Virus record (IMG/VR): IMGVR_UViG_2802429242_000011
Location: 1-3,381 of that record
Source of the DNA: a virus
Taxonomy: Duplodnaviria; Heunggongvirae; Uroviricota; Caudoviricetes
Length of the DNA: 3,381 nucleotides
Reading direction: 5' to 3' (one strand)
Shown here: piece after piece, positions 1 through 3,381 of the stretch
How the letters are laid out: each line of letters opens with the position of its first letter
How positions within the stretch are numbered: position 1 is the first letter of the stretch
Translations under genes and position numbers: made by a program
Notes under the pieces: generated by a model
What the model saw: only the letters and a program-made list of their open reading frames with translations
The model's database searches: none
What the model was told of the DNA's origin: nothing

Positions 1-585
1 CTTCGCGGGAAATGTGTACCGCGAGATCTGAAAGTGAACGAAACAAATGCTGAATATCTGGTGCGTAAATTTGCTGAAGCGGAGGCCAAGTGCGCGGCGC
101 TGGCGGCGGAGAATGCGGGGCTGAAGGCGGGACATTCATATTTCTCATATGGCTCTGAGCATAATTTCGAATGGCACAAAACTGCTGAGGAAGCTATCGA
201 ATCGGCTGAGGCTGCAATTGACGACTATCGCGGTGATGCTTGCGATGGATGGAGCGAAGAGGTCGATAGTATTTGCTGGGGAATCATCATGCAATCGTCA
301 ACGAAGGTTGGCGAACGACCACGCAACGAGGATGACTGTTGTGATCCTGCGATCGATACGATTTGCGATTATGCGCTTCTGCCTAATATCGACACCCCAG
401 CCACCGATGCTTTTCTGGCTGAAGTACGGGCGCAGGGCGTGGAGATGCTGGCAAAAAATCATCAGAGTATCGTCAATGCACTTAAGGGAGATTCTCTCTT
501 TTCTGATGGTGAATACCGACATGCAGCTATTGTTTCCGCAGCTGTATATTTCGCTGCAGAGCTTCGCAAAGGAGGCTGTCAGTGA
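1..585 (+). CDS. Hypothetical phage protein, probably the C-terminal part of an Ea22-like early-region protein; 5' end likely lies upstream of the window
   Basis: Frame 1 is open from base 1 to the TGA at 583-585. The first in-window start is GTG at 34, which has no convincing Shine-Dalgarno upstream, so the true start is probably outside the window. The product is acidic and Ala/Glu-rich with a predicted coiled-coil N-terminal stretch. The stop overlaps the next gene's start (GTGA, 582-585), indicating translational coupling. The family call is from memory of Ea22-like proteins, not a search. Confidence 0.55.
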   Translation, partial: LRGKCVPRDLKVNETNAEYLVRKFAEAEAKCAALAAENAGLKAGHSYFSYGSEHNFEWHKTAEEAIESAEAAIDDYRGDACDGWSEEVDSICWGIIMQSSTKVGERPRNEDDCCDPAIDTICDYALLPNIDTPATDAFLAEVRAQGVEMLAKNHQSIVNALKGDSLFSDGEYRHAAIVSAAVYFAAELRKGGCQ

Positions 586-998
586 GCGAAATTAATTATC
601 AGGCACTGCGTGAGATAGCAAAACAGGCAACACAAGGCGAATGGGTCGCATTTATTTCGCCGGGCAAATACGGCACGTACGCCGTGCACACACCAGGAGA
701 TAATCATCACGGAGATATTGTCGACTGGCCTGGATTCGACGAACAGAAAAACGCAGAGAACAACGCTCGTTATATCGCAGCTTTCAACCCTGAAGTAGTG
801 CAGGCGCTGTTGGATGAACGAGAAGCCCAAAGCAAACGCATTGCAGAACTGGAAGCACGGGAAATTTCGCTCCCGGAACGTAGCAGCATGCTTCATCGAA
901 CAGATTTTAACGAGGATTACCACACGGTAATGGCATACAAAGTTTCTGAAGTCATCGCTGCAATCCGCGCCGCTGGCATTCGCATCAAAGGAGAGTGA
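582..998 (+). CDS. ead/Ea22-like family phage protein (138 aa)
   Basis: GTG start at 582 is preceded by GGAGG at 571-575 with 6-nt spacing. The N-terminus MSEINYQALREIAKQATQGEW, the internal NARYIAAFNPEVVQALLDEREAQSKRIAELEA and the C-terminal AIRAAGIRIKGE match my recollection of conserved blocks in lambdoid Ea22/EaD-like proteins. Stop TGA at 996-998. Confidence 0.7.
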   Translation: MSEINYQALREIAKQATQGEWVAFISPGKYGTYAVHTPGDNHHGDIVDWPGFDEQKNAENNARYIAAFNPEVVQALLDEREAQSKRIAELEAREISLPERSSMLHRTDFNEDYHTVMAYKVSEVIAAIRAAGIRIKGE

Positions 999-999
999 G

Positions 1000-1191
1000 A
1001 TGAACGGACAAATCTCAATTGTTCGACCGGGAGCATGTGACGATCGCGAGATACGAATGATTATTCGTCTGGCGATGGGGAAAACAATAACGGCTCTCAT
1101 TACTCCAGAAAATCTCGCATTAGCATTAACCGGAAAGTCAGACCTGCCAGTAGAGCTAAAGCTGCGAAATGTTGAGATTAAGGTGAAATAG
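1000..1191 (+). CDS. Small hypothetical phage protein (63 aa)
   Basis: ATG at 1000 lies 1 nt after the upstream stop and is preceded by AAAGGAGAG. The ORF fills the gap between its neighbours exactly, with stop TAG at 1189-1191 two nt before the next ATG. No recognisable domain. Confidence 0.55.
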   Translation: MNGQISIVRPGACDDREIRMIIRLAMGKTITALITPENLALALTGKSDLPVELKLRNVEIKVK

Positions 1192-1193
1192 CT

Positions 1194-1811
1194 ATGACCA
1201 CTATTACCAAAGAACGTATTGAATTGTTCATTAAAAATCCGCTTGAAAACGGGCTTACTCGTAGCGAACAAATGGAAGTGGCACGGATTGCTTTGGCATC
1301 GCTGGAAGCAGAACCGGTTGCAGTAAACGACGACATGGCTTACGCATTCCATCACGCATTGTCAGATTCATCGCTAGGCGCTGATGAAGTAGAGGAAATT
1401 AAGGCCGGTTTGCGTGCTGCCTTTGCCAACGTCACTATCCAACCAGAGCCGGTAGTGCCGGATGAAATCGAGCCAGACGATAGCAATACGTTTGATTATG
1501 TTGATGGCTGGAATGCCTGCCGCGCTGCCATGCTTCATAGTGCCGAACCTGTAAGCCAGGCTTACAAGTTGAACGCGCTAGATGGCAACTCTCCGGTAAC
1601 TCCGGATGGTTGGATAAGCTGTAGTGAGCGAATGCCGGATGATGGTCAGCACGTAATTATTTTATGTGATGGCGCATTCGTTCTTTATGCGCAATATCGA
1701 GACAGTGAGTTTTTTGATGTTGTCCGCAATGGTGAGGAGTTCTTCGAAACGCAGAGCCGCAATGTAACCCACTGGATGCCGCTACCGGAACCGCCGCAGG
1801 AGGTGAAGTGA
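1194..1811 (+). CDS. DUF551 domain-containing phage protein (205 aa)
   Basis: The C-terminal segment DGWISCSERMPDDGQHVIILCDG...VTHWMPLPEPP matches the DUF551 signature (W-I...E-R/L-P-x-D ... THWMPLPEPP) that I recall from lambdoid prophage early-region proteins. ATG 1194 has AAGGTGAAA upstream. Stop TGA at 1809-1811 overlaps the next ATG by 1 nt. Confidence 0.8.
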   Translation: MTTITKERIELFIKNPLENGLTRSEQMEVARIALASLEAEPVAVNDDMAYAFHHALSDSSLGADEVEEIKAGLRAAFANVTIQPEPVVPDEIEPDDSNTFDYVDGWNACRAAMLHSAEPVSQAYKLNALDGNSPVTPDGWISCSERMPDDGQHVIILCDGAFVLYAQYRDSEFFDVVRNGEEFFETQSRNVTHWMPLPEPPQEVK

Positions 1812-2383
1812 TGAACAACTTAATGATCGACCTTGAGACGATGGGGAAAAATAAGGATGCACCGATCGTTTCCATTGGCGCGGTGTTCTTCACTCCAGAA
1901 ACCGGAGACATCGGACAAGAATTCTATACGGTTGTCAGCCTGGACAGTGCTATGGAGCAAGGGGCCACACCTGACGGCGATACCATCCTGTGGTGGTTGA
2001 AACAAAGCCCTGAAGCACGAGCTGCAATCTGTATTGATGATACTTTGTCGATCAGCGATGCACTCTCTGAACTGAGCCATTTCATTAATCGGCACGCAGA
2101 CAATACGAAATATTTAAAAGTTTGGGGTAACGGGGCCACCTTCGACAACGTAATTTTACGCGGAGCTTATGAACGAGCGGGACAAATCTGCCCATGGGCG
2201 TACTGGAATGATCACGATGTACGCACGATCGTTACGCTTGGGCGTTCCATCGGATTCGACCCCAAAATGGACATGCCTTTCGATGGCGAACGGCACAACG
2301 CCTTGGCTGATGCTCGTCATCAGGCCAAATATGTTTCAGCTATCTGGCAGAAATTAATTCCTGCCACCAGCACAGAATTATGA
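1811..2383 (+). CDS. DEDDh-family (DnaQ-like) 3'-5' exonuclease, phage type (Rv2179c-like)
   Basis: All three Exo motifs are present in order: Exo I MIDLET (D-x-E), Exo II WGNGATFDNVIL, Exo III H-x4-D in ERHNALADARH. I prefer ATG 1811 (GGAGG at 1799-1803, 7-nt spacing) over the in-frame GTG 1808 used by the ORF track. Stop TGA at 2381-2383. Confidence 0.85.
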   Translation: MNNLMIDLETMGKNKDAPIVSIGAVFFTPETGDIGQEFYTVVSLDSAMEQGATPDGDTILWWLKQSPEARAAICIDDTLSISDALSELSHFINRHADNTKYLKVWGNGATFDNVILRGAYERAGQICPWAYWNDHDVRTIVTLGRSIGFDPKMDMPFDGERHNALADARHQAKYVSAIWQKLIPATSTEL

Positions 2384-2419
2384 TTTTCCCGGGTGCAGCC
2401 GGTTTTGATGGAGAAAATT

Positions 2420-2701
2420 ATGAACACCTTGTTTTTACTGATGGCTGAATTCAATACCCCAAACATTGAACTCTCAGCAGTTAGCCAAAAGTACTTTGGT
2501 ATGAGTCCAGCCACGGCAGAAGCAAAAGCAAACGCTTGTAAGTTGCCCATTCCAACATATCGCATCGGCACATCACAAAAAGCAAAACGTTGCATCAATA
2601 TTCAGGATCTTGCGGAATACATAGACAAAAGACGAGAAGAAGGACGTATCGAGTGGGAACAGGTCAGAACAGGCAAACAGAAGGGCAAAGAACATCACTA
2701 A
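2420..2701 (+). CDS. PrtN-family / excisionase-like small DNA-binding protein (93 aa from ATG 2420)
   Basis: N-terminus MNTLFLLMAEF followed by a ...SQKAKR..I.IQDLAEYIDKRR core resembles the pyocin-activator PrtN family, which is often annotated as excisionase in enterobacterial prophages. ATG 2420 has GGAG at 2410-2413 with 6-nt spacing. The ORF track's GTG at 2393 and the ATG at 2408 lack a Shine-Dalgarno. Stop TAA at 2699-2701 sits just before the terminator. Confidence 0.7.
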   Translation: MNTLFLLMAEFNTPNIELSAVSQKYFGMSPATAEAKANACKLPIPTYRIGTSQKAKRCINIQDLAEYIDKRREEGRIEWEQVRTGKQKGKEHH

Positions 2702-2703
2702 AG

Positions 2704-2730
2704 AAAAAACCCGCCTGAAGGCGGGTTTTC
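2704..2730. terminator. Bidirectional rho-independent terminator shared by the convergent + and - strand transcription units
   Basis: AAAAAA (2704-2709), stem CCCGCC (2710-2715), loop TGAA, stem GGCGGG (2720-2725), TTTTC (2726-2730). On the - strand the same hairpin is followed by TTTTTTCTT, so termination looks at least as strong for the - strand genes. Confidence 0.75.
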
Positions 2731-2748
2731 AAAAAGCACCAGCTATGA

Positions 2749-2922
2749 TCATGCTGCTTTGCGACGACGAAGCTTACCCTGCTGCTCTTTACCAGAGACA
2801 GTAGCGTGAGTGAACGCATTAGGAGCAGCCTTCATCATAACTTCAACAGCAGCACCCATACCTGCGAATGCTTTCATTGTGTCGAACTTAACCTGTGGCT
2901 TGGTTGCTTTTTGATCTTCCAT
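2749..2922 (-). CDS. Small hypothetical protein (57 aa), not in the supplied ORF track
   Basis: ATG is the reverse complement of 2920-2922 and TGA the reverse complement of 2749-2751. Hand translation gives MEDQKATKPQVKFDTMKAFAGMGAAVEVMMKAAPNAFTHATVSGKEQQGKLRRRKAA. GGAG sits 6 nt upstream (reverse complement of 2929-2932), an in-frame stop lies 5 codons upstream, and the terminator follows directly. Codon choice favours GCT/GGT/GTT/CGT. No family recognised. Confidence 0.55.
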   Translation of the reverse strand: MEDQKATKPQVKFDTMKAFAGMGAAVEVMMKAAPNAFTHATVSGKEQQGKLRRRKAA

Positions 2923-2961
2923 AGAAAACTCCAGAAGCTATACCGAAAAAATTCCTGTTGT

Positions 2962-3381
2962 TTACTCATCATCAATAGATGATACGCAATATTTATTTTT
3001 AAATTTAAGGTTCTTTGGCGTAACTTCATCAGATATATCAAAACCGTCCAGAATTCTATTGAATGTAGCTTCTGGCATATCATCATGAACAGAAATCTCA
3101 CCCGATCGCTGCTTTCTAACCATGTTATCCACTCGCCAAATTATAGCTTCAGCGTAAACAACATAACTTGGATGCTTGATAAAGCGATGATCACCAGAAT
3201 TCAAGACGCAAGACGGATCGTGGGGGACACCATCCTTGATACTAGAAATATTAACAACTAAAACACAATAACAATCGTTAACGGGGTAATAAACAGGATC
3301 ATTACAAATCACATGAAGATGATTGCATGGCCCAGTTGGGGCAAGCACAGTTCCTTTCCTGTATGGCTGATAATCCGTCAT
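2962..3381 (-). CDS. Hypothetical protein (139 aa), low-GC; candidate divergent MazF/PemK (Kid)-fold toxin-like protein
   Basis: ORF runs from an ATG at the very last three bases of the window (3379-3381) to TAA at 2962-2964. The start could instead lie further upstream, outside the window. GC is about 38% by my manual count, against roughly 50% for the phage genes. Ordered motif resemblance to MazF/Kid as I recall them: YQP...G..LAPTGP, CYCVLVVNISS, IIWRVD, MPEATFNRILDGF. By-eye only, unverified. Confidence 0.6.
   Translation of the reverse strand: MTDYQPYRKGTVLAPTGPCNHLHVICNDPVYYPVNDCYCVLVVNISSIKDGVPHDPSCVLNSGDHRFIKHPSYVVYAEAIIWRVDNMVRKQRSGEISVHDDMPEATFNRILDGFDISDEVTPKNLKFKNKYCVSSIDDE

Follow-up and report, generated by a model that had tools for sequence, protein, structure and literature searches.

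A probable PanA-PanT toxin-antitoxin module of cluster T6, with a toxin predicted to have the MazF fold, at the attachment-site end of an Escherichia coli temperate prophage

The stretch of DNA analysed here, referred to throughout as the window, comprises the 3,381 nucleotides (nt) at positions 1 to 3,381 of the IMG/VR virus record IMGVR_UViG_2802429242_000011 (Caudoviricetes) and is the early-left arm of a temperate Escherichia coli phage. Its plus-strand genes encode an Ead/Ea22-like protein, a DUF551 protein, an Rv2179c-like 3'-5' exonuclease and a PrtN-family excisionase, and two open reading frames (ORFs) on the minus strand run from the window end back to a hairpin terminator. The subject of this analysis is the first of these two, an ORF of 139 amino acids (aa), which the original prediction, made from the sequence alone, had likened to the MazF/PemK toxins while noting that no partner antitoxin was visible in the canonical position. 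We regard it as very probably panT, the toxin gene of a two-gene PanA-PanT module. The gene and the expected end of its partner are located as follows.

2962 to 3381, minus strand: panT, encoding a 139-aa toxin with a predicted MazF/CcdB fold, assigned to PanT cluster T6 of Kurata et al. (2022).
3378 to 3380, minus strand: stop codon TGA of panA, overlapping the panT start as ATGA, with the 190-aa panA coding sequence beyond the window end; placed from the related loci L001 (E. coli SLK172) and L002 (phage Lys8385Vzw).

The ATG of the 139-aa ORF lies at the last base of the window (3381). In the phage locus L002, which encodes the identical protein, an in-frame stop codon occurs eight codons upstream of this ATG with no start codon in between; the ORF is therefore complete within the window, and a 5' extension was considered and rejected. 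The ORF has a GC content of 38.3% compared with 48.5% for positions 1-2701 of the window, and its GC content at third codon positions (GC3) is 30.7% compared with 52.1% in the adjoining exonuclease gene. Close relatives form 62 clusters in Enterobacterales, Vibrio and Shewanella, and an exhaustive profile search with the toxin family returned 2,703 representatives at E ≤ 1e-3, 929 of these at E ≤ 1e-10; judged by its sequence, the ORF is evidently a real gene. Both the listed E. coli genome records and the two phage records with the gene give the toxin only the name 'hypothetical protein'. Regarding the start codon, the RefSeq model WP_014640052.1 (128 aa; L001 6263-6649) begins 11 codons late, at the GTG of V12, so that the predicted strand 10-16 loses its first two residues. 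The 139-aa model, as found in phage MT225100, is considered correct because the family alignment keeps M1, P6, K9, G10 and T11, all within codons 1-11 (window 3349-3381), and because the ATG overlaps the panA stop codon as ATGA.

Over positions 2700-3381 the window shares 99.0-99.6% identity with phages Lys8385Vzw and SKA5 and with many E. coli chromosomes, and Lys8385Vzw and E. coli SLK172 encode the same ORF protein without a single difference in its 139 residues. In both of these loci the gene directly upstream of panT, just past base 3381, encodes a 190-aa protein which is named 'Panacea domain-containing' in RefSeq and matches the SocA_Panacea domain (PF13274, DUF4065) at 2.2e-19. The apparent lack of an antitoxin was thus an effect of the window edge, the canonical upstream position being filled by the gene for PanA. 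It had been proposed to look beyond position 3381 for an antitoxin of the MazE/AbrB or ribbon-helix-helix (RHH) type; in the loci with the identical ORF the upstream protein matched the Panacea domain only and no MazE/AbrB-, Kis/PemI- or RHH-type antitoxin.

The same arrangement was found well beyond E. coli. Related loci were drawn from a species-representative genome set, in which 31 loci were assessable for the upstream gene, and an upstream ORF of 169-227 aa was present in 28 of them, with a gap of mostly -4 or -1; all 28 match PF13274. These 31 loci span Enterobacterales, Methylococcales (methanotrophs), Vibrionales (Photobacterium), Alphaproteobacteria and Burkholderiales, that is, Gamma-, Alpha- and Betaproteobacteria. 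A comparison of homologues and their gene neighbourhoods had been proposed as a check of the original prediction, and with this recurrent PF13274 partner the suggestion of a toxin-antitoxin module is borne out, the partner being the translationally coupled PanA.

Among complete E. coli genomes panT was detected in 208 of 5,426; a joint query of panA and panT also returned 208, 206 of them over at least 80% of the query, and no E. coli genome with panT and without panA was seen (208 vs 208). Given this co-occurrence (208/208) and the 99.0-99.6% identical loci, panA is probably also present in the source of the window. Degraded copies among the matches listed, in NZ_CP032265.1 and NZ_CP074819.1, have a truncated panT and have kept panA; loss of the toxin gene first, with retention of the antitoxin gene, is the decay that would be expected of a toxin-antitoxin pair.

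The antitoxin is the more variable partner. Between L001 (6679-7251) and L002 (5679-6251), panA differs at 13 of 573 nt, with five amino-acid changes, and panT at 3 of 420 nt, with none. An alignment (A4) of the 28 PanA proteins encoded beside toxins of this family contains the invariant residues T134, H135, E142, W143 and I153 in a C-P-E-W-x-D-P...P-I segment at residues ~134-153, which is situated where the Pfam Panacea match (27-137) ends and past it, with a charged and variable tail behind it; by its conservation, this segment is a candidate toxin-binding element.

The Panacea antitoxin domain was named by Kurata et al. (2022; PNAS, PMC8832971), who catalogued 88 clusters of partner toxins. 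In their cluster T6 the antitoxin comes first, with no N-terminal domain and with overlaps of -1 or -4, and the HHpred annotation entered for the tested T6 member is 'EndoA/PemK/MazF-family RNAses'. The T6 rows of their Dataset S1 include Pantoea septica LMG 5345 (gap -4) and Yersiniaceae bacterium 2016Iso4 (gap -1). Our genome scan detected, behind a Panacea gene in each case, a toxin 56% identical to the ORF in Pantoea septica LMG 5345, at a gap of -4, and a toxin 55% identical to it in strain 2016-Iso4, at a gap of -1. Because both T6 strains carry relatives of 55-56% identity with the same spacing, a match made by strain and gene spacing and not by accession number, the ORF is assigned to T6 and appears to be a member of an already published and partly validated toxin-antitoxin family.

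The T6 pair that was tested is the Pseudomonas moraviensis PanA:PanT (WP_083354365.1 / WP_083201923.1); its PanT proved toxic in E. coli, and its PanA counteracted this toxicity (Kurata et al., 2022). The P. moraviensis PanT co-purifies with its PanA, the neutralisation being independent of ClpXP and Lon, and it selectively halts 35S-Met incorporation, as MazF does, while thymidine incorporation is spared (Kurata et al., 2022). The Pseudomonas-type family members retrieved here are 40-43% identical to the ORF (E 1e-28 to 1e-35), and the primer-derived termini of the P. moraviensis PanT, MPGNIL...IRQNNF, resemble those of the Pseudomonas subgroup, which starts with MPGN[VI]F or MPGTIL and ends with ...RQHKI. 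Literature searches for later characterisation of T6 toxins found none.

Regarding the fold of the toxin, an AlphaFold2 model of the 139-aa ORF built on a 54-sequence alignment has a predicted local distance difference test score (pLDDT) of 90.2 and a predicted template modelling score (pTM) of 0.84. Its secondary-structure elements are as follows.

Residues 10-16, 19-25, 37-47 and 72-83 of PanT: predicted beta strands.
Residues 84-93, 104-116 and 122-131 of PanT: predicted helices.
Residues 132-139 of PanT: disordered tail.

The best 50 matches of the model in a Foldseek search of the PDB were all MazF chains, with a best E value of 4.4e-3, probabilities of 0.94-1.0 and target-normalised template modelling (TM) scores of 0.50-0.63; the best viral matches in the structure search were PemK-like proteins. 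The ORF is thus predicted to have the CcdB/MazF fold. The original assignment to this fold proves right on account of the structure prediction and the Foldseek search, motif likeness alone being no proof, and the structure search that had been proposed was positive for the MazF fold while the sequence profiles gave a probability of about 1%. Its view of the protein as a divergent member agrees with these results, since the sequence models of PemK/MazF miss PanT and the fold matches. A C-terminal extension, put at roughly 25 residues, was likewise found at about 20 residues, consisting of the extra helix 122-131 and the disordered tail.

Sequence comparisons gave a different picture. A BLASTP comparison of the ORF with E. 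coli MazF was non-significant (E 0.51), and hhalign of a 125-sequence family profile against three targets, E. coli MazF alone, 111 MazF homologues and a mixed profile of MazF, Kid, EndoA and Staphylococcus aureus MazF, gave probabilities of about 1%, the MazF-type reference sequences having been verified against the PDB before use. Pfam PemK_toxin (PF02452) did not match the ORF, and one of the 125 family members touched this model, at E 0.11. A profile search of PDB sequences with the toxin family found nothing, scans of Pfam, NCBIfam and PADLOC gave no match for the ORF, and in the PHROGs scan it matched only a family of unknown function.

The low-scoring hhalign alignments are nevertheless collinear and pair most of the blocks of the original prediction in the same order: YQPYRKGTVLAPT with YVPDMGDLIWVDF, HLHVICNDP with HRPAVVLSP, VLVVNISS with CLCVPCTT, CVLNSGD with EVVLSGQ, and PEATFNRILDGF (helix 104-116) with the C-terminal helix of MazF. 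The pairing of AEAIIWRVD with ADQVKSIAWRAR falls in a gapped stretch of the alignment and was only roughly reproduced. The MazF/PemK-like order of motifs that had been described therefore stands as collinearity in low-scoring alignments, but as sequence the resemblance does not rise above chance. In this register, which is of low confidence, H21-L22 pairs with H28-R29 of MazF and S46-S47 with T52-T53.

Conservation was counted in a broad alignment (A2) of 125 representatives sharing 24-50% identity with the ORF, and it points to two stretches of panT.

3241 to 3321, minus strand: codons 21-47, with strand 19-25 carrying H21-L22 (MazF H28-R29) and strand 37-47 ending in S46-S47 (MazF T52-T53); from the conservation in A2 and the low-confidence hhalign register.
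3166 to 3219, minus strand: codons 55-72, the family's most strongly conserved block, D55-x2-C58-x-L-x2-G63-[DE]-H65-x-F67...S72; from A2.

In the first stretch H21 is conserved in 124/125 and L22 in 118/125 sequences, and S or T is found at position 47 in 123/125 and at position 46 in 107/125. In the second, D55 is kept in 121, C58 in 122, G63 in 117, H65 in 123, F67 in 119 and S72 in 117 of the 125; further nearly invariant residues across the representatives are Y76, G113 and S117. The D-x2-C...G-[DE]-H-x-F block occupies the stretch between strands 37-47 and 72-83 and has no counterpart motif in MazF, and its conservation makes it a candidate active-site or substrate loop. The position of the catalytic Arg of MazF (R29 in E. 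coli, R25 in Bacillus subtilis) is aligned, at low confidence, with the nearly invariant L22, H21 adjoining, as the original prediction had noted in reading Leu/His in place of this Arg; the position of the catalytic Thr (T52 in E. coli, T48 in B. subtilis) fits the S/T at positions 46/47 in the same register. Canonical MazF chemistry is therefore doubtful, given the Leu at the Arg position and a two-residue turn in place of the long loop, and a remodelled active site is plausible from the pattern of conserved residues.

Taken together, these results make it very probable that the ORF encodes the toxin (PanT) of a type II module of two genes, panA and panT, carried as low-GC cargo at the attachment-site (att) end of an E. 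coli temperate prophage. By homology with the tested T6 member, the toxin would arrest growth through a block of translation, most probably as an endoribonuclease, and PanA would neutralise it by direct binding. The gene structure, the fold, the PanA partner and the T6 membership come from the present analysis, and toxicity, neutralisation, complex formation and the translation block from the literature on the relative. On this reading panA and panT would form one operon read toward the terminator at 2705-2730. A promoter scan found a single sigma-70-like site ~125 nt upstream of panA, such sites being no commoner in the region than in shuffled sequence, and the promoter evidence is weak. PanA would be translated first and PanT would be translationally coupled to it via the ATGA overlap; PanA would hold PanT inactive by direct binding, by analogy with the P. 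moraviensis T6 pair, and PanT, once freed, would halt translation as the P. moraviensis PanT does, most probably through the cutting of RNA. The catalytic centre may be a changed one, in which H21, H65, D55 and C58, with S46/S47, replace the Arg/Thr pair of MazF, and a role of the module in prophage retention or phage exclusion may be envisaged.

Several observations weigh against this reading. None of the sequence comparisons yields a link to MazF or PemK, and the gene for PanA lies outside the window. The link to the tested P. moraviensis toxin is made through the published cluster assignment and primer-derived termini; in E. coli, 8 of the 25 PanT candidates showed no toxicity (Kurata et al., 2022), and the toxicity of the E. 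coli T6 pair is attributed by homology. In the sole alignment, of low confidence, a Leu stands at the catalytic Arg position, and the model has a turn of two residues (between strands 10-16 and 19-25) where the alignment places a MazF loop of ~12 residues.

The last two of these bear on an alternative that is possible, though not the one we favour, namely that a PanT of MazF fold works by another chemistry or on another target, with H21, H65, D55 and C58 as a new active site. This is a variant of the main explanation and keeps the toxin-antitoxin assignment. Such a site might bind a metal, might use two histidines for acid-base cleavage of RNA at a new specificity, or might be that of a Cys-His-Asp hydrolase or transferase whose substrate is a component of translation. 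L22 at the R29 position in the hhalign register, the turn of just two residues between the first two strands, the 97-99% conservation of H21, D55, C58 and H65 in the 125 representatives, the lack of such a motif in MazF and the failure of the PemK hidden Markov model to match are all in its favour. However, the S46/S47 pair at the end of strand 37-47 appears to keep the position of the catalytic Thr of MazF, the register, itself of low confidence, may be shifted by one residue, so that H21 would fall on the Arg position, and the tested T6 toxin behaved like MazF in labelling assays. An extension of the idea, in which the T6 PanT lineage may have lost both the Arg/Thr pair and the long loop and built a new active centre from H21, D55, C58 and H65 with a new chemistry or target, the prophage module then serving as an abortive-infection effector and PanA as its phage-sensing switch, is speculative and we consider it unlikely.

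It is improbable that PanT lacks toxicity and uses its MazF fold for some other task in the prophage, for example as a regulator or an RNA binder, its adjacency to PanA having nothing to do with neutralisation. Of the PanT candidates assayed in E. coli by Kurata et al. (2022), a third showed no toxicity; this would fit such a protein, as would the attribution of toxicity by homology in the E. coli pair and the fact that the canonical catalytic Arg is not evident. The coupling to PanA, however, is tight and ancient across bacterial classes, with co-occurrence in 208/208 E. coli genomes; panT alone is truncated where the module decays, the strong conservation of the polar residues of PanT is what an enzyme would show, and a member of the same cluster is toxic. 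A CcdB-like gyrase poison in place of a translation inhibitor is very unlikely: in the fold comparison ten different MazF/Kid-type chains, nine of them named MazF or Kid, outscored CcdB, no CcdB occurred in the Foldseek top 50, and the tested T6 homologue blocks translation specifically and not thymidine incorporation.

Downstream of panT, two further features complete the minus-strand unit.

2749 to 2922, minus strand: orf57, a 57-aa ORF co-directional with and downstream of panT; PHROG 2741, match at 1e-34.
2697 to 2730, no strand assigned: bidirectional hairpin of the intrinsic-terminator type in appearance, which separates the convergent excisionase gene (plus strand) from the panA-panT-orf57 unit (minus strand).

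The original prediction had named the 57-aa ORF as the sole neighbour, and orf57 is indeed the only co-directional neighbour of panT inside the window and is probably co-transcribed with it. A tblastn search recovered orf57 from two loci alone, L001 of E. coli and L002 of the phage, and from none of the 32 related loci of other organisms; mEp460, a phage devoid of panAT, also carries it. On both counts orf57 was rejected as a partner in the module, contrary to the part that had been considered for it. A three-component module that includes orf57, or a type III (ToxN-like) system with an RNA antitoxin, can for the same distribution of orf57 and for the lack of a ToxI-like tandem repeat array in or around the cassette be dismissed as hardly conceivable, the upstream element being a protein-coding Panacea gene and Tandem Repeats Finder having returned, for L002 4900-6800, three trivial short repeats, none of them upstream-adjacent to the toxin. 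Regarding the hairpin, the terminator scan of L002 5006-5031 (window 2705-2730) gave an 11-bp stem with 6 GC pairs, and the GC-rich hairpin AAAACCCGCC-TGAA-GGCGGGTTTT at window 2697-2730 could end transcription from both sides.

In the phage genome the excisionase gene is followed by orf57-panT-panA on the opposite strand, ~455 nt and the integrase gene. Phage and prophage are identical for ~260 nt (about 265) upstream of panA and then diverge, at L002 ~6516, the probable att core, and a short TCGAGCAT direct repeat lies at L002 6506-6528. Beyond the divergence point, E. coli SLK172 (L001 7505-7609) contains a 105-nt 5' fragment of a tRNA-dihydrouridine synthase gene, which suggests integration into a dus gene. 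Because of the gene order and of the point at which phage and prophage diverge, panAT is the last cargo before the attachment site, in agreement with the low-GC cargo (38.3% vs 48.5% GC) that the original prediction had placed next to a prophage excision module. Phage mEp460 (NC_019716.1, 2550-3453) keeps orf57 and the terminator and has, between orf57 and the integrase gene, an unrelated 177-aa hypothetical gene (F853_gp23) that replaces panA-panT. Comparison of these sequences indicates a variable cargo slot next to the att site, the content of which differs between related phages.

Two annotations of neighbouring genes deserve comment. The gene Lys8385Vzw_33 of MT225100 (L002 3546-4112), just before the exonuclease gene, is labelled 'valyl-tRNA synthetase'; the same position in the window (1194-1811) encodes a DUF551 protein (PF04448, 6.6e-22), as also given in RefSeq, and the phage label is probably a wrong annotation. 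The excisionase candidate at window 2393-2701 belongs to the PrtN family (PF11112, 2.5e-23), and its RefSeq start is the ATG at 2420 (93 aa), not the GTG at 2393.

What had looked like an orphan MazF-like toxin is thus very probably one half of a PanA-PanT pair split by the window edge. The RefSeq model of the toxin gene, which starts 11 codons too late, is corrected, both genes gain a functional label, and the att-proximal cargo slot of these related prophages is marked as variable. The analysis also draws attention to a large lineage, of more than 2,700 representatives at 50% identity, for which a MazF fold is predicted, which has no Pfam model and whose invariant residues differ from those of MazF.

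Regarding known systems, the PADLOC-DB v2 defence models gave no match for PanT, PanA or orf57 at E ≤ 1. The type III systems ToxIN, AbiQ and CptIN differ from the present module, which has a protein partner and no repetitive RNA antitoxin. In comparison with CcdAB, the gyrase poison system of the F plasmid, the match of PanT is weaker than that to MazF, no CcdA-type antitoxin is present, and the tested PanT homologue inhibits translation and not replication. With the type VI system SocAB of Caulobacter the module shares the Panacea/SocA-like domain of PanA; however, SocA is a ClpXP adaptor for the proteolysis of SocB, a blocker of the DNA polymerase clamp to which PanT is unrelated, in the tested systems PanA neutralises without ClpXP or Lon, and the SocA equivalog model NF047745 of NCBIfam scored PanA at 14.4 bits, below its cut-off of 190.

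The MazEF, Kis-Kid and PemIK systems (PF02452) are closer. The secondary-structure elements of PanT are collinear with theirs, including the C-terminal helix, an S/T pair ends strand 37-47 at what the low-confidence alignment gives as the position of the catalytic Thr of MazF, and the antitoxin gene is upstream and translationally coupled. On the other hand, PanT has no detectable sequence-profile similarity to these toxins, the catalytic Arg is not evident (Leu22 being aligned), the loop between the first two strands is a two-residue turn, an additional C-terminal helix and the PanT-specific D-x2-C...G-[DE]-H-x-F block are present, and the antitoxin is of the Panacea type and not of the MazE/AbrB or Kis/PemI type.

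The sole E. coli PanAT validated by Kurata et al. (2022) is a different one, with a membrane toxin of cluster T3, and the tested T6 row is flagged NotPhage, whereas the copy described here resides in an E. coli temperate prophage beside an att site. The module resembles PanAT cluster T6 in the following features: a standalone Panacea (PF13274) antitoxin is encoded upstream, in the order antitoxin to toxin with an overlap of -4 or -1, and the toxin, which has no CDD or Pfam match, has a predicted structure like that of MazF, EndoA and PemK.
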